In this document: one piece after another, positions 1-9,582 of the stretch
Layout: each line of letters begins with the position of its first letter
Numbering within the stretch: the first letter of the stretch is position 1
Origin: Solirubrobacterales bacterium
Lineage (GTDB): Bacteria > Actinomycetota > Thermoleophilia > Solirubrobacterales > 70-9
Reading direction: 5' to 3'
DNA: 64,000 nucleotides
Assembly (NCBI GenBank): GCA_035759925.1
Contig: DASTTY010000043.1
Coordinates: 9,389-73,388 of the forward strand
The notes under the pieces: generated by a model
The model's database searches: none
Told to the model about the DNA's origin: nothing
What the model saw: only the letters and a program-made list of their open reading frames with translations
Made by a program: the position numbers and the translations under genes

Positions 1-43
1 GGTCGCCCGCGCGCCCTGGCTCTGGCCGGTCCTGAAGGGGCCG

Positions 44-583
44 ATGACCTCGTACTTCGACGGCCTGGCCGGCACCTGGGACGAGCGGACGGGTGCGCCG
101 GGGCCGGACCACCTCGCACCGCTCGCGGTCGCCGTGACGATGATCGACCGGCGGCCCGAGCGAGCGCTCGACATCGGGACCGGGACGGGCGTCGCCGCCC
201 TGTTCGTCGCCCGCGAGTTCCCCTACGCGTCGGTGCGCGGTGTCGACGTCTCCGAGGAGATGATCCGCCGCGCCAAGGCCAAGGTCGGGCTCGATCCCGA
301 AGGGCGGGTCGCCTTCCAGGTCGCCGACTCCTCCTCGCTCCCCTACGGCGACGGCGACTTCGACCTGGTGACGCTGCTGAACATGCCGCCGTTCTTCGCC
401 GAGATCGCCCGCGTCCTCCGCCATGGCGGCCACGCGATCGTCGCCGCCAGCTCCGGCGATCGGACGCCGTTCTACACGCCCGACTCGGTGCTGGCCCGGG
501 GATTCGGGCGGCACGGGATGTCGACCGTCAAGACCGGCCGGATCGGCAACGGCTCCTGGTTCGTCGCCCGCAAGGGAGACTGA
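44..583 (+). CDS. class I SAM-dependent methyltransferase (small, Methyltransf_11/25-like)
   Basis: 179-aa ORF. SAM motif I ALDIGTGTGVAALF, acidic GVDVSEEM, DLVTLLNM. GAAGGGG SD-like sequence 5 nt before the ATG. Only 6 nt to the next gene. Confidence 0.75.
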   Translation: MTSYFDGLAGTWDERTGAPGPDHLAPLAVAVTMIDRRPERALDIGTGTGVAALFVAREFPYASVRGVDVSEEMIRRAKAKVGLDPEGRVAFQVADSSSLPYGDGDFDLVTLLNMPPFFAEIARVLRHGGHAIVAASSGDRTPFYTPDSVLARGFGRHGMSTVKTGRIGNGSWFVARKGD

Positions 584-589
584 GCACGC

Positions 590-1492
590 GTGGCCGATCC
601 CGCTCCGGCGACCGCCTACTGCCTGCTCGTCAATCCCTCGGCCGGATCGGGCCGGGCGCAGAAGCGCCTGCCGGAGATCCGCTCCGAGCTCGACCGGCGC
701 GGGATGCAGTACCGGATCGTGATGACGACGGGGATCGAGCACGGCTGCCGGGAGGCGCTCGCCGCCGCCGAGCGCGACGAGGTGCCGGTCGTCGTCAGCG
801 GCGACGGGCTGATCGGCAAGGTCGGCGGCGCGCTCGCCGGCTCCGCGGCGCCGCTCGGCATCATCCCCGGCGGACGCGGCAACGACCTCGCACGCGTCGT
901 CGGGATTCCGACGGACCCCGCCGGCGCGGTTGCGGTGCTCGCCGCCGGCAGCCGCCGGCGGATCGACGTCGGCGAGGCGAACGGGGAGCGCTTCCTCTGC
1001 ATCGCGAGCTGCGGCTTCGACTCCGACGCGAATCGGATCGCGAACGAGACGACGGCGATCGGCGGTCCGCTCGTCTACGCCTATGCGGCCGTCAAGGCGC
1101 TCTGGCAGTGGCGTCCCGCCGAGTTCACGGTGACGGTCGACGGCGAGGCGACGAGCGTTCGCGGCTACTCCGTCGCCGTCGCCAACTCGCAGGCGTACGG
1201 CGGCGGGATGTTCGTGGCTCCCCAGGCGCGCCTCGACGACGGCCTCCTCGATGTGGTGATCACCGGCGACGCCCCGAAGCGCAGGTTCCTGACCGGGCTT
1301 CCGCAGGTCTTCAAGGGCACACACATCGAGCGGGACGACGTGATCACGCTGCGCGGCCGGGTCGTCGATGTCGATGCCGATCGCCCCTTCGACGTCTACG
1401 CCGACGGTGACGTGCTGACCGGCCTGCCGATGCGGGTCGGCCTTCTCGACGACGCGCTCGAGCTGATCGCCCCGCCGGCCGGAGCGCCGTGA
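590..1492 (+). CDS. diacylglycerol-kinase-family lipid kinase (DAGK catalytic domain, YegS-like)
   Basis: 300-aa ORF with GTG start about 11 nt after AAGGGAG. Signatures VVVSGDGLIGKV and IIPGGRGNDLARV. Stop overlaps the murT start (GTGA at 1489-1492). Confidence 0.75.
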   Translation: MADPAPATAYCLLVNPSAGSGRAQKRLPEIRSELDRRGMQYRIVMTTGIEHGCREALAAAERDEVPVVVSGDGLIGKVGGALAGSAAPLGIIPGGRGNDLARVVGIPTDPAGAVAVLAAGSRRRIDVGEANGERFLCIASCGFDSDANRIANETTAIGGPLVYAYAAVKALWQWRPAEFTVTVDGEATSVRGYSVAVANSQAYGGGMFVAPQARLDDGLLDVVITGDAPKRRFLTGLPQVFKGTHIERDDVITLRGRVVDVDADRPFDVYADGDVLTGLPMRVGLLDDALELIAPPAGAP

Positions 1493-2886
1493 GCAGCGAG
1501 CGACGCAGGGGCTTGTTCGCTGCGAAGGTCGCCGCCGCGCGCGCGATCGGCGCGCTGAGCCGGCGCAGTGGCCGCGGCGGCGGGACGACCCTGCCCGGCC
1601 GTTTCCTGCTGCGGATCGCTCCGGACGCGATCGGCAGGCTCGGCGCCGGCCTCGAGCGCTCGCGAACGATCATCAGCGCGACGAACGGCAAGACGACGAC
1701 GGCGGGAATGCTGGCGTCCGCGCTCCATGCCGCCGGTCGCGACCCGGTCCACAACCGGGCCGGATCGAACATGGCCTGGGGCGTCGCGACGGCGCTGCTC
1801 GACGGTGGCGGTGACGAGGGCCTCTTCGAGGTCGACGAGGCATGGCTGCCGAGCGTCGCCGACGAGCTCGCGCCGACGCTGCTCGTCCTCGGCAACCTAT
1901 TCCGCGACCAGCTCGACCGCTACGGCGAGCTCGAACGTCTCGCCGACCAGTGGGCCGCCGTGGTCGCCGGGCGCGAAGGCCGAACCGGCCTCGTCCTCAA
2001 CGCCGACGACCCGTTGATCGCCGACCTCGGCCGCGACCGCGAGCTGCGCCGTCGCGAGGGAGTCACGTTCTTCGGCATCGAAGATCCCGCCCAGGCCGTC
2101 CCGGAGCTCCAGCATGCGTTCGACGCCAAGCATTGCCGCCGCTGCGGGGCCCCGTATCGCTACGAGCGCGCCTTCGTCGGCCACCTCGGCCATTACCGCT
2201 GTCCGAACTGCGGCGCCGATCGTCCTGCGCCCGACGTCTACGCGACCGGCATCGAGCTGCAGGGGATCAGCGGCTCGCGGTTCCGGGTCCGGACCGGGGA
2301 CGGCGAGCTCACGATCGACCTGCCGCTGCCCGGGCTCTACAACGTCTACAACGCGCTGGCCGCGATCGCCGCCGCGGGGCGGCTCGGCATCGCCGGCGAG
2401 CAGATCAGCGCCGGCCTGCAATCGGTTCGCGCCGCGTTCGGACGGGTCGAGACGATCGCAATCGGCGAGCGGTCGCTGGCGATCCTGCTGATCAAGAACC
2501 CCGCCGGCGCCAACGAGGTCCTGCGAACCCTGAGGCTCGAGGCCGAGCAGAGCGGCGGCCGTCTCGATCTCTGGCTCGCTCTCAACGACCGGATCGCCGA
2601 CGGACGCGATGTCTCCTGGATCTGGGACGCGGACTTCGACTTGCTCGCCGATTCCGCTGGGCGGATCCACTGCACCGGCACGCGCGCCGCCGAGATGGCG
2701 CTTCGGCTCAAGTACGCCGGCTGGCCGACGGACCGGATCGAGGTCGTCGCAGGGATCCCCGACTCGCTCGACAGGGCGCTTGCCGCCGCCGACCAGCGCC
2801 TCTTCGCGCTCCCGACCTACACGGCGCTGATCGAGCTGCGCACCCTGCTCGCCAAACGCGGCCTCGCGACGGAGTTCTGGCGATGA
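1489..2886 (+). CDS. murT: lipid II isoglutaminyl synthase subunit MurT (Mur-ligase family)
   Basis: 465 aa. Mur-ligase P-loop ISATNGKTTTAGML. C4 zinc ribbon CRRCGAPY...CPNCG typical of MurT. C-terminal DUF1727-like DGRDVSWIWDADFD. Confidence 0.85.
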   Translation: MSSERRRGLFAAKVAAARAIGALSRRSGRGGGTTLPGRFLLRIAPDAIGRLGAGLERSRTIISATNGKTTTAGMLASALHAAGRDPVHNRAGSNMAWGVATALLDGGGDEGLFEVDEAWLPSVADELAPTLLVLGNLFRDQLDRYGELERLADQWAAVVAGREGRTGLVLNADDPLIADLGRDRELRRREGVTFFGIEDPAQAVPELQHAFDAKHCRRCGAPYRYERAFVGHLGHYRCPNCGADRPAPDVYATGIELQGISGSRFRVRTGDGELTIDLPLPGLYNVYNALAAIAAAGRLGIAGEQISAGLQSVRAAFGRVETIAIGERSLAILLIKNPAGANEVLRTLRLEAEQSGGRLDLWLALNDRIADGRDVSWIWDADFDLLADSAGRIHCTGTRAAEMALRLKYAGWPTDRIEVVAGIPDSLDRALAAADQRLFALPTYTALIELRTLLAKRGLATEFWR

Positions 2887-3656
2887 CTGCGCGGCTCGGC
2901 GGCGGGCGCCGCACCTCGCCCCCAGCCGGCGGCGACCCGGTCGCCTGGCACGACGCCGAGCACGGCGGCTTCGCGGCTGACCTCGAGCTGTTCGAGCGGC
3001 TCGCCGGCGAGCGCCCCGGCGGCGTCCTCGACCTCGGTGCCGGGACCGGGCGGGTCGCGCTGCCGCTGGCCGCCGCCGGACACCCGGTGACCGCCGTCGA
3101 CACCGACCCGGCGGTCCTGGCGGCGCTCGCGCAGCGGGCCGCCGATCGCAGCCTGCCCGTCGAGACGGTCCGCGGCGACGCCCGCGACCTCGACCTCGGC
3201 CGGAGGTTCCCGCTGATCCTGGCGCCGATGCAGCTCCTCCACATCGCCGGCGGGTCAGCGGGGCGCCGCGGCTTGCTCGCCGCCGTCGCTCGCCATCTCG
3301 AGCGCGAGGGGCGGCTCTGTGCGGTCGTGATCGAGGAACCGCTGCCGACCGGCACAGGTCGGCCCGATCCGGTCCCCGACGTCCGCGAGGTCGATGGCTG
3401 GGTCCACTCGAGCCTGCCGACCGAGATCCGGATCGAGGAGCAGGCGATCACGATGATCCGCCTCCGCCAGCTCGTGGCGCCGGATGGGACCCTGACCGAG
3501 ACGACGCACACGATCCACCTCGACCGCTTCACGCTTGCCGAGCTCGACCGCGACGCCGATGCCGCCGGGCTCTGGATCGTCGGCTGCGAGCGGGTCCCGA
3601 GCACGATCGAGTTCGAGGACTCGCTGGCGGTCTACATGGAGGTGCGCGATGGCTGA
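2883..3656 (+). CDS. class I SAM-dependent methyltransferase inserted between murT and gatD
   Basis: In-frame ATG at 2883 inside the long artefactual ORF 1842..3656; 257 aa. SAM motif I VLDLGAGTGRVALPLA and VTAVDTDP. ATGA overlap with the murT stop and 8-nt overlap with the gatD start. Confidence 0.7.
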   Translation: MTARLGGGRRTSPPAGGDPVAWHDAEHGGFAADLELFERLAGERPGGVLDLGAGTGRVALPLAAAGHPVTAVDTDPAVLAALAQRAADRSLPVETVRGDARDLDLGRRFPLILAPMQLLHIAGGSAGRRGLLAAVARHLEREGRLCAVVIEEPLPTGTGRPDPVPDVREVDGWVHSSLPTEIRIEEQAITMIRLRQLVAPDGTLTETTHTIHLDRFTLAELDRDADAAGLWIVGCERVPSTIEFEDSLAVYMEVRDG

Positions 3657-4392
3657 GCTACGGCTGCTGGCCCTCTATCCGGAGCAGATGAACATCTACG
3701 CCGACCGCGGCAACGTGCTGTTCCTGCAACGCCGCTGCGAGTGGCGCGGGATCGGCTTCAGCTATGTGGCCGCCGGGGCGGGCGAGCGGTTCGATCCCGA
3801 TGCGCACGACCTCATCTACATCGGCGGCGGCCAGGACCGCGACCAGCGGATGGTCGCTGCCGATCTGCTCGCGACCAAGCGAGACGCGATCGAGGCTGCG
3901 ATCGCCGCCGGCGTCGCCGGTCTCGCGGTCTGCGGCGGCTACCAGCTCCTCGGCTCGTCCTACCAGCTCGGCGAGGAGCGCATCGAAGGCCTCGGCGTGG
4001 CGCCACTCCACACGGTCCGCGAGCCCGGGCCCCGACTGATCGGCAACGTCTCGATCGAGGTCGACCTCGGCTCCGGCCCCCGCGTGCTCGCCGGCTTCGA
4101 GAACCACGGCGGCCGCACCTACATCGACTCCGGCGGCGAGCCGCTCGGCCGCGTCCTCCACGGTCACGGCAACAACGGCCGCGACGGCCTCGAAGGGATC
4201 GTCCGCGGGAACCTGATCGGGACCTATCTGCACGGTCCGCTCCTGCCGAAGAACGCCTGGCTGGCCGACGAGCTGATCGCCCGGGCGATCGAGCGCCGCG
4301 AAGGCACCCGGCCGGAGCTCGCCCCGCTCGACGACCGCTTCGAGGACGCCGCTCACGCCGATGCCGAGCGCGTCGCCGCCAGCGATCGGTGA
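3649..4392 (+). CDS. gatD: lipid II isoglutaminyl synthase glutaminase subunit GatD (CobQ-type class I amidotransferase)
   Basis: ATG 3649 within ORF 3535..4392; 247 aa. Nucleophile elbow LAVCGGYQLLG, plus GFENHGGRT and GTYLHGPLLP. Confidence 0.85.
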   Translation: MAELRLLALYPEQMNIYADRGNVLFLQRRCEWRGIGFSYVAAGAGERFDPDAHDLIYIGGGQDRDQRMVAADLLATKRDAIEAAIAAGVAGLAVCGGYQLLGSSYQLGEERIEGLGVAPLHTVREPGPRLIGNVSIEVDLGSGPRVLAGFENHGGRTYIDSGGEPLGRVLHGHGNNGRDGLEGIVRGNLIGTYLHGPLLPKNAWLADELIARAIERREGTRPELAPLDDRFEDAAHADAERVAASDR

Positions 4393-4417
4393 CCCTGGCC
4401 GCGGATGACCGACTGGA

Positions 4418-4852
4418 TCAGGCCACCCCGCTCGAGCCGAACCCGAGCTCACCGCGGGCGCTGTCGGCGAGCGTCACCGCCTCGACCGGATCGACCTCGG
4501 CGAACGGCGTGACCAGGAGCTGCGCGATCCGGTCGCCGGGCTCGATCTCGAAGCCGTGCTCGCGATCGGTGTTGAGCAGCAGGATGCGGAGCTCGCCCCG
4601 GTAGCCGGAGTCGATCAGCCCGGGCGCGTTGACCATCGAGATCCCGTGACGGAGCGCGAGCCCCGAGCGCGGCAGCACGAGCCCGGCGTGACCGGCGGGA
4701 ATCTCGACCGCCACGCCGGTCCCGATCGACGCCCTCTCCCCCGGCCCGAGCAGCGCCGGCTCAGCGGCCCGCAGATCGAGGCCGGCGTCGCCGGGATTCG
4801 CCCGCGACGGAAGCACGGCGCCGGGCTCGAGCAGGCGGACCTTCAGCTCCAC
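4418..4852 (-). CDS. dut: dUTP diphosphatase
   Basis: 144 aa with GTG start. dUTPase motifs AGLDL, GLIDSGYRGEL and C-terminal RGELGFGSSG. Confidence 0.9.
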   Translation of the reverse strand: MELKVRLLEPGAVLPSRANPGDAGLDLRAAEPALLGPGERASIGTGVAVEIPAGHAGLVLPRSGLALRHGISMVNAPGLIDSGYRGELRILLLNTDREHGFEIEPGDRIAQLLVTPFAEVDPVEAVTLADSARGELGFGSSGVA

Positions 4853-4856
4853 GCCC

Positions 4857-6185
4857 TCAGGCGGCCCTGCCGTTGACGGACCAGGCGCTGAAGCGATGCG
4901 TCAGGCTGCGCGGCACCCGCGCCTTGACCAGCACCCCGTCCTCGCGGTCCTCGCGGTCGACCTGACCGGCGATCTCGTGCAGCTCGTTGAGCGTGGCGCC
5001 CTCGCCGTAGGGGATCAACAGCTCGACCCGCTCGAGGGTCTTCGCGAAGGCATTCTCGATCGCGTCGAGGAGCGCCTCGACTCCCTCTCCCGTCGTCGCC
5101 GAGACGCCGACGGCGCCGCGACGGCCGACGAGGAGGTCCCGGCGGGCGTCCTCGTCGAGGAGGTCGATCTTGTTGAACGCGACGACGCGCGGCGTGTTGC
5201 CGGCGCCGATCTCCTCGAGCACGGAGTCGACGGCGCGCATCGCCGCGTCGCGGGACGCCGACGGCTCCGAGCCGTCGACGACGTGCACGATCAGGTCGGC
5301 CAGAGTCGTCTCCTCGAGGGTCGCCTTGAAAGCGTCGACGAGCTGATGGGGGAGCTTGCGGATGAAGCCGACGGTGTCGGTGAGCAGGTACTTGCGGCCG
5401 CCGTGCTCGAACGACCGCGTCGTCGGGTCGAGCGTGTGGAACAGCCGATCGCCGACGCTGACGCCGGCGCCGGTCACGGCGTTGAGCAGCGTCGACTTGC
5501 CGGCGTTGGTGTAGCCGGCGAGAGCCACGGTCGGGATCGCCGAGCGCTCGCGCTCGGCCCGCATCGTCCCGCGGCTGCGCTCGACGACGCGCAGCTCCCG
5601 CCTCAGTGCGGCGATCCGGTCGCGGGCGAGCCGGCGGTCGGTCTCGATCTGCGACTCGCCCGGTCCCCGGGTGCCGATGCCGCCGTCCATGCGGCCGGCG
5701 CCGAGCCGCTCGAGATGCGTCCAGAGCCCGCGCATGCGGGCGAGGTTGTACTCGAGCTGCGCGAGCTCGACCTGGAGCTTTCCGGCCGCGCTGTGGGCGT
5801 GGTCGGCGAAGATGTCGAGGATGATCGCCGTCCGGTCGATGACCGGCACGCGGAGGGCGCTCTCGAGGTTGCGCTCCTGCCGCGGCGCGAGCTCGTCATC
5901 GCAGGCGACGAGGTTGGCGTCGACCTGCTTGATCTCGGCCTTCAGCTCGTCGAGCTTGCCGCGCCCGAAGTAGCGGTCCGGGTCGGGTTCGGCGCGCTGC
6001 TGGACCATCCGAGCCTCGGTCGCGACGCCGGCGGTGCGGAGCAGCTCGCTGAGCTCGTCGAGCTCGGCGTCCTCACCGGGAGTCCCCCTGACGACGCCGA
6101 TCGCAACGGCGCGCTGACGCGCCCGCGGGTTGCGGATCCCGCCGCGGTCGCCATCGACTCGCGCTGGGTCGCCGTTGCCGTTCAT
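4857..6185 (-). CDS. hflX: GTPase HflX
   Basis: ATG 6185 chosen inside the 554-aa ORF, whose upstream 112 codons are Arg-rich GC artefact. HflX N-domain plus G-domain with GYTNAGKST, DTVGF and NKID. Confidence 0.85.
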   Translation of the reverse strand: MNGNGDPARVDGDRGGIRNPRARQRAVAIGVVRGTPGEDAELDELSELLRTAGVATEARMVQQRAEPDPDRYFGRGKLDELKAEIKQVDANLVACDDELAPRQERNLESALRVPVIDRTAIILDIFADHAHSAAGKLQVELAQLEYNLARMRGLWTHLERLGAGRMDGGIGTRGPGESQIETDRRLARDRIAALRRELRVVERSRGTMRAERERSAIPTVALAGYTNAGKSTLLNAVTGAGVSVGDRLFHTLDPTTRSFEHGGRKYLLTDTVGFIRKLPHQLVDAFKATLEETTLADLIVHVVDGSEPSASRDAAMRAVDSVLEEIGAGNTPRVVAFNKIDLLDEDARRDLLVGRRGAVGVSATTGEGVEALLDAIENAFAKTLERVELLIPYGEGATLNELHEIAGQVDREDREDGVLVKARVPRSLTHRFSAWSVNGRAA

Positions 6186-6259
6186 CCGTCCAAGTGTAGG
6201 AGTACCCGCCGAGGGTGGATAGGCTCCCGCCTTTCCCAGACCGCTGCCCGGAGGCCACG

Positions 6260-7057
6260 TTGAGAAGAAGAACGATCGACTACCTGCTCCTCGCCCTGAT
6301 CGCCGTCGGCCTGATCGGCGCCGGCTATGCCGTGGCGGGCAACTCCGGCGACGGCGGCAAGACGAAGATCGCGACCATCCGGCCGACCGGCGTCGGCCTG
6401 CCGCGGGTGGGCATGCATGGCACCGTCGGCGCCGGCGACATCGCCGCCCCGCTCCGCCAGTACCACGACTCCGGGCACTACGAGTCCGACCTCGACAAGG
6501 TCGGCGGCAAGGCGCAGGCATACCTCGATCGCCGCGTCGCGAAGATCCGCAAGCAGGCGCGAAAGCGCTGCCACAGCCACGGTGTCTCGAAGTGCCGGAT
6601 GCCGAAGCTCGCGCTCGTGCTCGACATCGACGAGACGTCGCTCTCGAACTACTCGGAGCTGGCGGCGACGAACTTCAGCGGGGCGACCGCGGCGCTGACG
6701 ACGGCGCTGTTCGCGGCCTCCTCGCCGCCGATCGACCCGACGCTGGAGCTGTTCGACGACGCCCGGGCGAAGAGCGTCTCGGTCTTCTTCATCACCGGTC
6801 GCCCCGACCTCGACGTCGTCCGCGACCGGACCGAGTCGAACCTGAGATCCGCCGGCTACTCGGGCTGGCGGGAGCTGGTCCTGCGGCCCTCCGACGCCGA
6901 CGGCACCCGCGCCTACAAGTCGGCCGCCCGTGCCGACATCGAGGCGAGCGGCTACCGGATCGTGCTCAACGTCGGCGACCAGGACAGCGATCTCAAGGGT
7001 GGCCACGCCGACAAGGCGTACAAGCTCCCGAACCCGTTCTACTTCATCAGCGACTGA
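6260..7057 (+). CDS. membrane-anchored HAD-superfamily class B (plant-type) acid phosphatase
   Basis: TTG 6260 lies 5 nt after GGAGG (alternative GTG at 6215). Signal-anchor LLLALIAVGLIGAG. HAD motifs LDIDETSL, FFITGR and VGDQDSDL. Confidence 0.7.
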   Translation: MRRRTIDYLLLALIAVGLIGAGYAVAGNSGDGGKTKIATIRPTGVGLPRVGMHGTVGAGDIAAPLRQYHDSGHYESDLDKVGGKAQAYLDRRVAKIRKQARKRCHSHGVSKCRMPKLALVLDIDETSLSNYSELAATNFSGATAALTTALFAASSPPIDPTLELFDDARAKSVSVFFITGRPDLDVVRDRTESNLRSAGYSGWRELVLRPSDADGTRAYKSAARADIEASGYRIVLNVGDQDSDLKGGHADKAYKLPNPFYFISD

Positions 7058-7066
7058 GCGCCGGCT

Positions 7067-8407
7067 CTAGATCGAATCGACCGAGAACAGCGTCCACTCG
7101 CCGGGGACGCCCCGCAGCGAGTGGGAGCCGCGCTCGCTGAACTCGATGCCGGAACCGACGACCAGGTCCTTGACGGTCGATGACGTCAAGACCTCGCCGG
7201 GGCCGCCGAGCGCGCCGATCCGGGCACCGATGTGGACCGCCATGCCGCCGACGTCGGCGCCGATCACCTCGACCTCGCCGGTGTGGAGGCCGGCCCGGAG
7301 GCGGATCCCCAGCTCGGCGACGCGCTCGCCGAGCTCGGTCGCGCAGCGAACCGCCCGGGCGGGACCGTCGAAGGTGGCCAGATAGCCGTCGCCGGTCGAT
7401 TTGACCGGGACGCCGCCGTAAGCACCGACGAGCTCGCGGGTGAGCTGGTCGTGGCGCTCGAGCAGGCTGCGCCAGCGCCGATCGCCCTGCTCGGCGGCGA
7501 TCTCGGTCGACCCGCAGATGTCGGTGAACAGGACGGTGGCGAGCGCTCGCTCCTCGCGCCGGTTCGCGACGGCGCCGGTCACGAACCGCTCGACCGTCTC
7601 CATGTAGGCCTCGAAGTCGTCGCCGAACGAGATCGCGTCGCGACCGGGCAGCTCGACGAGCTCGCCGCCGGGAATGTGCTCGGCGAAGTAGCGGGCGTGA
7701 CGGGAGTCCATCGCCTTCGCCAGCGGCCGGTCGAGGATCAGGCTCGGAGCCTGGACCCGGGGAAGGATCTCGCGGACGTCCATCCGGGCGATCAGCTTCA
7801 TCCGCTTCTCCATCGTGCCCGGCGACGACGACAGCCGCTCCCAGCGCCCCCACCATTCCTTGAAATCGGGATCGGTGGCCGACAGCACGGGCGAAGCCGT
7901 CATTCCGTTCTCGCCGGTCCCCCAGTGGGCGAGCATCGGCCGGACGAAGTCACGCTCACGGGTCTCCTCGTCCGCCCATCCCCAGTCGTAACCGGGCGCC
8001 GCGATCATCCGCGCCATCGGGTGCATGAGGATCAGGTGGCTGACCCGCTCGGGGTGCGTCGCAGCGAAGACGACGGCCAGCATCGCCGCCTCGGCCTGGG
8101 CCTCGAGCACGACCCGATCGGTGCTGCAGGCGTCGAGGACGGCGATCACGTCCGCCATCTGCTCCTCGAGCGTCGCCGGGACCTCGACCGGGTCGGAGAG
8201 CCCGGCGCCGCGGCGATCGAACGAGATCAGCCGCGAATGGTCGGTGTATCCGCGCATCAGTCGCTTCGCGGGCGGGACCGCCAGCATCTCGATCGTGCCG
8301 AGGCTGGGCAGGACGATCAGGTAGTCCTGCTTCCCCGCTCCCATCGTCCGGTAGGCGATGTACCGGCCATCCTCGCTGCGGACGTATCTGACCGGCGAAT
8401 CCTGCAT
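7067..8407 (-). CDS. alpha/beta-hydrolase fused to class III adenylate/guanylate cyclase
   Basis: ATG 8407 inside the 732-aa artefactual ORF; 446 aa. N-terminal alpha/beta-hydrolase fold. C-terminal cyclase motifs VLFTDICGST, KSTGDGYLATF and LRAGLHTGEVE. Confidence 0.8.
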   Translation of the reverse strand: MQDSPVRYVRSEDGRYIAYRTMGAGKQDYLIVLPSLGTIEMLAVPPAKRLMRGYTDHSRLISFDRRGAGLSDPVEVPATLEEQMADVIAVLDACSTDRVVLEAQAEAAMLAVVFAATHPERVSHLILMHPMARMIAAPGYDWGWADEETRERDFVRPMLAHWGTGENGMTASPVLSATDPDFKEWWGRWERLSSSPGTMEKRMKLIARMDVREILPRVQAPSLILDRPLAKAMDSRHARYFAEHIPGGELVELPGRDAISFGDDFEAYMETVERFVTGAVANRREERALATVLFTDICGSTEIAAEQGDRRWRSLLERHDQLTRELVGAYGGVPVKSTGDGYLATFDGPARAVRCATELGERVAELGIRLRAGLHTGEVEVIGADVGGMAVHIGARIGALGGPGEVLTSSTVKDLVVGSGIEFSERGSHSLRGVPGEWTLFSVDSI

Positions 8408-8412
8408 CGCGA

Positions 8413-9582
8413 TCAGCTCAGGTGTTCCCGCATCCGCTCGACCGCCTCGGTCAGCCGCTCGTCCGGCGTCGTCAGCGAGATCCGGAAGAATCCCTCGCCG
8501 CTCGGCCCGTACATCGACCCGGGCGAGATCACGACCGCCGCCTGCTCGAGGACGTGCTCGCAGAACGAGGTCGAGGTGTGCCCGTCGGGGACGGGCGCCC
8601 AGACGTAGATCGTCCCCCGCGGCGATTCGACGTCGACGCCGATCTCGCGCAGCGCATCGACGACGAGGTCGCGGCGGCGGGAATAGATGCGGTTCATCTC
8701 CGCGAGCGGGTCCGCCGGTCCCTCGAGGGCAGCGACGCCGGCGAGCTGGACCGCCTCGAAGAGCCCCGAGTCGACGTTCGTCTTCAGCCGCCAGTAGGTC
8801 TCGATCGCGGCGGCATTGCCGAGGATCGCCGCGCAGCGCCAGCCGGTCATGTTGTAGCCCTTCGAGAGGCTGAAGACCTCGACCCCGACGTCCTTGGCTC
8901 CGGGGGTCTCGAGGAAGCTCGGAGCGACGTAGCCGTCGTAGGTCGTCTCCGAGTAGGCGTTGTCGTGGACGATGAGGATCTCGTGCTCGCGGGCGAGCTC
9001 GACGACGCGCTCGAACAGGCCGTCGGGGGTGGTCGCCCCGGTCGGGTTGTTCGGGTAGTTGATGAACAGCAGCCGGGCGCGGCGGAGCGCTTCGGGATCG
9101 ATCGCGTCGAGGTCGGGGGCGAATCCGAGCTCGGGAACGAGCGGCAGCACCTCGACCTCGGCCCCGGCGAGGACCGGACCGCCGGTGTAGACCGGGTAGC
9201 CAGGGTCGGAGGCGAGCGCGACGTCGCCGGGATCGAGGAAGGCGAAGCAGAGGTTGTAGATGCATTCCTTGGCGCCGATCGCCGGCATCACCTCGGACTC
9301 TGGATCGATCGCGACGCCGAACCGGCGCTCGTAGAAAGCTGAGAACGCCTCCCGGAACTCCGCCCGCCCGCGATTCGACGGGTACTTCTGGTTGCCGTTC
9401 TCGGCAACCGCCGCCTGCATCGCGGCGACGACGTGGTCGTAGGTCGGCATGTCCGGATCGCCGATCCCGAGGCTGATCACGTCGATCCCGGCGGCGCGCT
9501 TGGCGGCCACCTTGCGCTCGAGCTCGGCGAACATGTACGGCGGGATCGCCTCGAGGCGCTTCGATGGGTCGGTCAGGGCCAA
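8413..9582 (-). CDS. dapL: LL-diaminopimelate aminotransferase-type class I/II aminotransferase
   Basis: 389 aa. N-terminus [35 protein letters not shown] resembles DapL proteins. PLP-lysine motif [12 protein letters not shown]. Sits immediately next to dapF. Confidence 0.65.

Follow-up and report, generated by a model that had tools for sequence, protein, structure and literature searches.

The window analysed here is a stretch of 64 000 nt from a Solirubrobacterales contig (DASTTY010000043.1), and positions 1–4392 carry, all present and co-oriented on the + strand, five open reading frames (ORFs) that encode a first methyltransferase (MT1), a DAGK-family lipid kinase, MurT, a second methyltransferase (MT2) and GatD. 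Judged by comparison with related loci, the window begins inside a housekeeping operon for the cell envelope, of which it has the 3′ four-fifths and which is found across the class Thermoleophilia; the conserved core of that operon is lipid kinase–MurT–MT2–GatD. MT2 is thus lodged between the genes for the two subunits of lipid II isoglutaminyl synthase. We propose, tentatively and with close to even chances, that MT2 methylates the lipid-linked stem peptide of the wall precursor, alongside its amidation. The features in question, with window coordinates and strand, are as follows.

2..583, +, MT1, class I S-adenosylmethionine (SAM) methyltransferase, 5′-truncated by the window edge; Methyltransf_25/11 and UbiE-like matches
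590..1492, +, soluble DAGK-family lipid kinase of the YegS/Rv2252/BmrU subfamily, opening the conserved core; DAGK_cat and YegS_C
1489..1492, +, kinase/MurT start/stop overlap GTGA; read directly, kept in relatives
1489..2886, +, MurT, ATP-dependent ligase subunit of lipid II isoglutaminyl synthase; Mur_ligase_M and MurT_C
2883..2886, +, MurT/MT2 start/stop overlap ATGA; read directly, same 4-nt overlap in 67 surveyed loci
2883..3656, +, MT2, dedicated 257-aa class I SAM methyltransferase with a TylM1/CypM/CcbJ-like fold; Methyltransf_25
3649..3656, +, MT2/GatD 8-nt overlap ATGGCTGA; read directly, with overlaps of 13, 8, 4 or 1 nt seen across 67 loci
3649..4392, +, GatD, glutaminase subunit of lipid II isoglutaminyl synthase; GATase_3

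Operon layout and conservation

Junctions. Besides the three overlaps listed, the sequence shows a 6-nt gap between MT1 (TGA stop, 581–583) and the kinase (GTG start, 590). Each downstream start is preceded, within the gene before it, by a GGAG-type Shine-Dalgarno-like motif, and GatD ends with a TGA at 4390–4392, after which come a convergent dUTPase gene (4418–4852, − strand) and then hflX. The domain assignments of all five genes are upheld by Pfam and NCBIfam. A sequence-only reading of this DNA had described the same five genes with the same overlaps and gap, and direct reading agrees with it everywhere except at the start of MT1, which is treated below. A promoter and terminator scan of positions 1–5000 found none, and none is expected at such GC content; scans of the whole window for Rfam families and tRNAs gave no match.

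Related loci. An MT2 profile was scanned against one genome per GTDB species, yielding 149 relatives, from which the best 80 loci were kept. The five window proteins were mapped onto all loci by tblastn, and the counts given here are over 81 distinct loci. The order MurT–MT2–GatD is found in 78 of them, nearly always with the kinase in front; wherever the contig allows, the kinase lies directly 5′ of MurT, and in 62 loci the two overlap by 4 or 1 nt. MurT and MT2 share the 4-nt overlap in 67 loci, and the MT2/GatD junction is an overlap of 13, 8, 4 or 1 nt, likewise in 67. Of the candidate starts, the junction survey takes the one closest to the upstream stop, and it is therefore biased towards short distances, but the 4-nt class is far too dominant to stem from this rule. 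Short gene overlaps are ordinary in high-GC operons; what lies above chance is the conservation of these overlaps across relatives, not the overlaps per se.

Phylogenetic range. Nearly all loci are labelled Solirubrobacterales, Conexibacteraceae, Thermoleophilaceae or Thermoleophilales, and the cultured Patulibacter americanus DSM 16676 (L069) is among the cassette-bearing species. Two long contigs have the identical five-gene cassette, with MT2 76% and 52% identical. When the profile was run against 1.84 billion cluster representatives, about 288 clusters (50% identity) matched at E ≤ 1e-30. Four of the lowest-ranked among the 150 matches listed (MT2 identity 32–36%) all lie between MurT and GatD genes, as do MT2 proteins of 266–269 aa (37–38% identity) on two Solirubrobacteraceae contigs. 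Named matches in both the protein search and the genome scan are all Thermoleophilia/Solirubrobacterales, bar a few broadly or differently labelled metagenome-assembled genomes (MAGs). Two loci carry the labels Acidimicrobiia and Acidobacteriota (L016 and L018); their cassette proteins are 62–77% identical to those of the window (MT2, 48–52%), and for this reason we regard them as probably mis-binned Thermoleophilia contigs.

These comparisons show MT2 to be a distinct family that occurs essentially only between murT and gatD and is defined by that context. The co-conservation is far stronger than a single sequence could reveal. The sequence-only reading had listed, as a point that would speak against it, an insertion unique to this genome and lacking co-conservation; the insertion is co-conserved across the whole class, which removes that objection. 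A strict one-complex view of these genes is weakened by three exceptional loci described below (L035, L066 and L087).

MurT and GatD

Lipid II isoglutaminyl synthase uses ATP to activate the α-carboxyl of D-iso-glutamate, which is then amidated by ammonia derived from glutamine, and MurT/GatD does this to lipid II on the inner side of the membrane. In Gram-positives, cross-linking, resistance to lysozyme and susceptibility to antibiotics are under the control of this amidation, which is pursued as a drug target.

In the window, MurT has the Pfam domains PF08245 (E 8.6e-16) and PF08353 (MurT_C, DUF1727; E 2.6e-31) and matches Streptococcus pneumoniae MurT (6fqb) over its full length (E 1.8e-63). 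Aligned to that protein, it has the P-loop 65-TNGKTT-70, and its Cys4 zinc ribbon (C216, C219, C238 and C241) falls on four cysteines of 6fqb chain A, a stretch also covered by weak zinc-ribbon Pfam matches. The segment 367-DRIADGRDVSWIWD-380 is kept, with D371 aligned to the Asp of YADGIDTSWIWD in 6fqb. Following the S. pneumoniae and Staphylococcus aureus structures, we take the Asp of DRIADGRDVSWIWD (before G-x-D-x-SWIWD) to be the residue that completes the GatD catalytic triad. GatD itself matches S. aureus GatD (5n9m/6gs2) at E about 1e-45, and G59, C94, R128 and H189 of the S. aureus protein correspond to G59, C95, R129 and H195 in the window. In S. aureus GatD, C94 and H189 are catalytic, R128 binds glutamine and G59 belongs to the oxyanion site (PMC8210147).

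Both proteins miss the NCBIfam equivalog cut-offs (MurT, 250.9 against 800; GatD, 177.3 against 450), while these models are still their top matches by a wide margin. The models are narrow, one of each pair being labelled Staph, and we ascribe the missed cut-offs to this narrowness and to deep divergence, not to another function. MurT and GatD are shown by alignment to carry all the motifs of lipid II isoglutaminyl synthase, and they look catalytically competent. Their identification from the bare sequence is therefore upheld by domains, catalytic residues and structure–sequence matches.

It has been stated that murT and gatD are invariably syntenic (PMC8210147). Here they share one operon without being immediate neighbours, as the MT2 coding sequence puts 774 nt between them; we treat this as a variant of layout and no reason to doubt the enzymes. 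The murT–gatD pairs of S. aureus (SA1708/SA1707), S. pneumoniae and Mycobacterium tuberculosis (Rv3712/Rv3713) have the same domains, the same catalytic motifs and a co-oriented, coupled operon, but in those species the two genes are direct neighbours, whereas here MT2 lies between them and a lipid kinase in front, a layout that is class-wide. Literature searched for MurT, GatD and a methyltransferase together gave no description of the MurT–MT2–GatD arrangement, literature on Thermoleophilia genera gave no mention of MurT, and a paper on molecular markers for Thermoleophilia (PMC6544083) mentions none of the cassette genes.

Some Solirubrobacteraceae MAGs have, in addition, a paralogous single-chain GatD~MurT of about 756–759 aa with GatD at the N-terminus (L086, 7001–10778; the P0335 cluster; MDX6661533.1 and MDX6674250.1). 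A MurE/MurD-like ligase gene follows it, it faces an SLT/M23 hydrolase gene, and neither kinase nor MT2 is nearby. It scores 210 bits against the MurT model, lower than the cassette MurT, which makes the cassette pair the more canonical one. The paralogous locus looks like a second, uncharacterised module for modifying the stem peptide.

The inserted methyltransferase

Sequence. The SAM motifs of MT2 (D50-LGAGTGR-57, D73 and D99) show little or no variation. Over 82 sequences, conservation of at least 95% is found at W22, H23, D24, E26, D33, G52, G54, G56, R57, D99, P115, M116, Q117, R128, P165, D166, W173, S177 and R195. The protein is under purifying selection and has invariant Arg, Asp and Glu residues. 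Its best NCBIfam match is the daptide-type methyltransferase of ribosomally synthesised and post-translationally modified peptides, NF041820, over the full length and at 96.3 bits against a cut-off of 175. The same model is the top NCBIfam match (84.3 bits) of a distant Solirubrobacteraceae MT2 (L088), for which BioC also appears, as a weak match to the core only. On these scores MT2 is related to the daptide methyltransferase family and is not a member of it.

Fold. An AlphaFold2 (AF2) model of MT2 has a predicted local distance difference test score (pLDDT) of 81.8, and its top Foldseek matches are CcbJ, CypM, TylM1, CalS10, DesVI, KedS8, MtfA and NmbA (E 1e-19 to 1e-14; template modelling score about 0.6–0.73), with a few C-methyltransferases ranking lower. 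Sequence searches of the PDB give a similar set at the top (CcbJ, CypM, YunM, MtfA, NmbA and TylM1). By model and Foldseek alignment, MT2 shares with N-methyltransferases of the TylM1/CypM type a class I Rossmann core and a C-terminal β-sheet lid. The relatives of MT2 methylate amines on peptides, on diphosphate-carried amino sugars or on a thiol cofactor, and the structures nearest to the model bind peptides or diphospho-sugars. No carboxyl O-methyltransferase is among the MT2 matches in the Pfam, NCBIfam, PDB sequence or Foldseek searches. This resemblance shifts the odds towards N-methylation, while leaving room for an ester.

MT2 thus has its fold in common with TylM1/DesVI, CypM, CcbJ, MtfA, NmbA and the daptide family, whose substrates resemble parts of lipid II. 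Its identity to the TylM1/CypM-type enzymes is nevertheless merely 20–27%, it has motifs of its own (WHDxE, APMQ, PDVRE...W.SS and R.RQ), and it is found in a housekeeping wall operon, whereas the TylM1/CypM-type enzymes belong to biosynthetic gene clusters and to natural-product and thiol pathways.

Proposed role of MT2

Stem-peptide methylation. Under the proposal made at the outset, coupled translation would yield MT2 along with MurT and GatD, and MT2 would methylate the stem peptide once, on the lipid-linked peptidoglycan precursor that these two also use, at the inner face of the membrane. The four core proteins are all predicted to be soluble and cytoplasmic, with ATP, glutamine or SAM as cofactors or substrates. 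The peptidoglycan of Solirubrobacterales is of the A1-gamma meso-diaminopimelate (meso-DAP) type (PMC3035278), and the candidate sites for N-methylation would be the free amine at the D-centre of meso-DAP or the newly made isoglutamine amide. The DAP amine would match the fold relatives of MT2, and the isoglutamine amide would suit the position of the gene. A carboxylate of DAP or D-Ala would suit the biology and the mycobacterial precedent, with no enzyme relative behind it. Leaning on the modelled fold, we rank N-methylation slightly above a carboxyl methyl ester.

The ester version. A sub-case of the same proposal, and one we consider rather unlikely, makes MT2 a carboxyl O-methyltransferase that esterifies D-Glu, meso-DAP or the terminal D-Ala of the stem peptide on lipid II. 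Charge would then be neutralised in parallel with the amidation by MurT/GatD, much as AsnB/LtsA does on DAP elsewhere, and co-expression with another carboxylate-masking enzyme would be functionally sensible. The invariant arginines R57, R128 and R195 of MT2 could hold a carboxylate. Precedent exists in Mycobacterium smegmatis, where carboxyl methylation of Glu, meso-DAP or the terminal Ala is described, and in Pseudomonas aeruginosa, where it is the terminal Ala. Set against this, the best sequence and fold matches of MT2 include no carboxyl O-methyltransferase, the characterised ones at the top being N-methyltransferases apart from a few C-methyltransferases, and the named matches are Thermoleophilia, so that MT2 is not the mycobacterial or pseudomonad enzyme.

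The sequence-only reading had described the cassette as a lipid II tailoring module in which MurT/GatD amidates and a methyltransferase perhaps makes methyl esters. The amidation part stands; the esterification part is possible but has nothing pointing to it, the closest relatives of MT2 being amine N-methyltransferases. Methylated stem peptides are reported for M. smegmatis, Mycobacterium leprae and P. aeruginosa in papers that cite Mahapatra 2005 (PMC4995902, PMC9239049 and PMC12632261), and these papers agree with what that reading had said of methylated as well as amidated mycobacterial carboxyls. The link it drew to Mycobacterium found no support: MT2, with its Thermoleophilia matches, does not explain the mycobacterial observation. 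Both the meso-DAP amidation by AsnB/LtsA and the methylations in M. smegmatis and P. aeruginosa are second stem-peptide modifications beside D-iGlu amidation, as proposed for MT2. They differ in that AsnB/LtsA is an amidotransferase unrelated to MT2, and in that the methylations were seen by mass spectrometry, in what we count as other phyla, where no MT2 homologue was seen. Phrase searches of the literature returned no named peptidoglycan methyltransferase and no enzyme assigned to stem-peptide methylation, and a 2025 review lists the function of methylated stem peptides as open.

Points against stem-peptide methylation. Several observations weigh against the proposal. Gene order shows co-expression, not a common substrate. 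Two of the candidate sites have difficulties of their own: methylation of the DAP amine would block the acceptor in cross-linking, which is biologically awkward, and the NPPY-type motif that known amide N-methyltransferases have is absent from MT2. MT2 also evolves faster than its neighbours (mean pairwise distance 0.50, against 0.32 for MurT and 0.27 for GatD). Pairwise distances of the four core proteins are all strongly correlated through shared phylogeny, and the partial correlations of MT2 with GatD (0.39), the kinase (0.36) and MurT (0.14) do not discriminate between partners.

Exceptional loci count on the same side. In L035 (6105–7741) and L066 (6147–7744) the kinase and MT2 genes are joined by a 4-nt overlap, the MT2 motifs are intact and the dut–hflX synteny is kept, with no MurT or GatD within 7 kb. 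L072 reads kinase–MT2–GatD. In L087 (6015–9205, a Solirubrobacteraceae MAG) the order is kinase–MurT–GatD, with an ATGA overlap of MurT and GatD and MT2 cleanly absent; the absence is attributed to secondary loss, since close relatives have MT2. From these rare separations it follows that MT2 is not an obligate subunit: MurT/GatD can do without it, and it does not need them in cis.

Action on a protein. The same loci bear on another explanation, in which MT2 is a regulatory third subunit of MurT/GatD or methylates MurT, GatD or another wall-synthesis protein. Tight translational coupling, which suggests equimolar synthesis, and the existence of a few single-chain MT2–GatD predictions favour it. 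The loss of MT2 from L087 while MurT and GatD stay tells against it, as do the fold relatives of MT2, which are small-molecule or peptide enzymes and not protein methyltransferases. An AF2 prediction of one such chain (P0269, MT2–GatD, from a mixed alignment) gave a predicted template modelling score (pTM) of 0.69 and a pLDDT of 88.6, with five models at 70–89, which supports neither this explanation nor stem-peptide methylation. Most MT2–GatD ‘fusions’, moreover, bear out-of-frame stretches of the indel-error type. We think it very unlikely that MT2 acts on a protein.

Apparent fusions. In L014, MT2 and GatD run on in one frame, and a search with this locus found many two- and three-domain ‘fusions’ (P0269–P0306). 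MT2–GatD and MurT–MT2–GatD chains were rejected as evidence of association, as they mostly contain Arg/Pro-rich out-of-frame stretches of the type left by indels in long-read MAGs; P0269 and P0275 alone look clean. The annotated 734-aa ‘fusion’ of L087 was likewise set aside as an artefact of a frameshift near the 3′ end of MurT, and the kinase–MurT ‘fusions’ of L058 and L084 as frameshifts or a decaying kinase. False fusions can readily arise here from a single indel because the start/stop junctions overlap.

Lipid kinase, MT1 and a lipid substrate

Kinase. The kinase scores 140.6 against TIGR00147 (YegS/Rv2252/BmrU), above the cut-off of 118.65, matches DAGK_cat and YegS_C nearly end to end, and has DgkB, BmrU and YegS as its best solved relatives. 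Its identity as a DAGK-family enzyme, first proposed from the sequence, is confirmed by these matches, and it belongs to the conserved core as a constant partner. The soluble kinases DgkB, YegS, BmrU and Rv2252 have the same two-domain architecture, and the window protein meets their subfamily cut-off; unlike the window kinase, none of them was linked with murT–gatD in a literature search.

MT1. Every Methyltransf_25/11 and UbiE-like match of MT1 is below the family cut-off, and among solved structures a bacterial phosphatidylethanolamine N-methyltransferase comes closest (8ys9, E 7e-11). The sequence-only reading took MT1 for a complete protein of 179 aa starting at position 44, which proves wrong. 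Positions 1–43 of the window contain no in-frame stop ahead of this ‘M1’, and the frame is open to the first base. The in-frame peptide 5′ of ‘M1’ (VARAPWLWPVLKGP in the window; ...GRALNATVAHAPWLWPVLKRP in relatives) is kept in all 27 relatives examined, and in several of these the ‘M1’ codon is ATT, ACG, GTC or ACC, none of them a start. On these three grounds MT1 extends past the left window edge; gene calls in relatives are of 204–221 aa, which is about its true length, with the start outside the window. Ahead of the methyltransferase core, this conserved N-terminal stretch (...GRALNATVAHAPWLWPVLKRP in relatives) is partly hydrophobic and may serve for association with the membrane. A divergent peptidyl-prolyl isomerase gene lies upstream of MT1 in relatives.

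MT1 is present in 43 of the 81 loci and absent from those of Thermoleophilaceae and Patulibacter, whose cassette begins with the kinase. With about half of the loci carrying it, MT1 does not qualify as the fixed part of the module that it had been taken for; it is best described, from its distribution, as a lineage-specific accessory that precedes the core in some Solirubrobacterales.

Lipid modification. Kinase and MT1 bring up the main rival to stem-peptide methylation, to which we give a lesser but real chance. MT2 and the kinase, together with MT1 where present, would have a membrane lipid as their target, methylation of a head-group amine being one example; the operon would include MurT and GatD only for co-regulation of envelope synthesis, and the position of MT2 would be a frozen historical accident. 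The kinase–MT2 pairs of L035 and L066, with their 4-nt overlap and intact MT2 motifs, persist without MurT and GatD, as this rival would have it, and the kinase belongs to a lipid-kinase subfamily. MT1 resembles, if weakly, phosphatidylethanolamine N-methyltransferase, and MT2 has weak matches to ornithine-lipid and phosphoethanolamine N-methyltransferases; these lipid-methyltransferase matches of MT2 are, however, confined to the SAM-binding core. The distance correlation is double-edged: that of MT2 with the kinase remains after control for MurT (partial r 0.36), but that of MT2 with GatD also remains after control for the kinase (partial r 0.39). A lipid substrate also leaves it hard to explain, without some link, why the exact place of MT2 and its overlaps between two obligate partners are kept class-wide.

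Other variants and neighbouring genes

In L075 (6278–7678) two tandem copies of MT2 lie between MurT and GatD. L070 (4342–6966) has a 2.5-kb insert between MurT and MT2 that encodes a P-loop-like ORF, a GT4-like glycosyltransferase and a sulfotransferase; the latter two fit an envelope-tailoring locus. On the same strand 3′ of GatD, L002 (9506–11905) has RimB-like, RimK-type ATP-grasp and AstE/AspA-like genes, which could add a glutamate-ligating module to the cassette.

Downstream of the cassette, a housekeeping block (window 4418–9582) is conserved in most relatives. It starts with dUTPase (−) and HflX (−), and among its further genes are a class B acid phosphatase (6215–7057, +), an α/β-hydrolase plus adenylate-cyclase protein (−) and a class I/II aminotransferase (8413–9582, −), whose N-terminus resembles LL-diaminopimelate aminotransferase. 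DapF and MiaA come after this block in relatives.

Significance

Thermoleophilia are among the most abundant and least studied classes of soil actinobacteria. The cassette would be a systematic exception to the rule that murT and gatD are always adjacent, and it supplies in MT2 the first concrete candidate enzyme for a cell-wall methylation step, one that is accessible in cultured strains. Should the lipid alternative be right, the operon would contain a conserved kinase–methyltransferase pair that works in lipid metabolism and is regulated jointly with wall synthesis. The fullest form of the stem-peptide proposal is one we put forward with some reserve, as possible but on balance doubtful: MT2 would be the first peptidoglycan-precursor methyltransferase to be pinpointed, the stem peptide would be both methylated and amidated throughout the class, and the kinase would carry out a further, so far unrecognised step on the same lipid-linked intermediate. 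If true, this would add a new tailoring step to lipid II and a new chemotaxonomic trait for Thermoleophilia.

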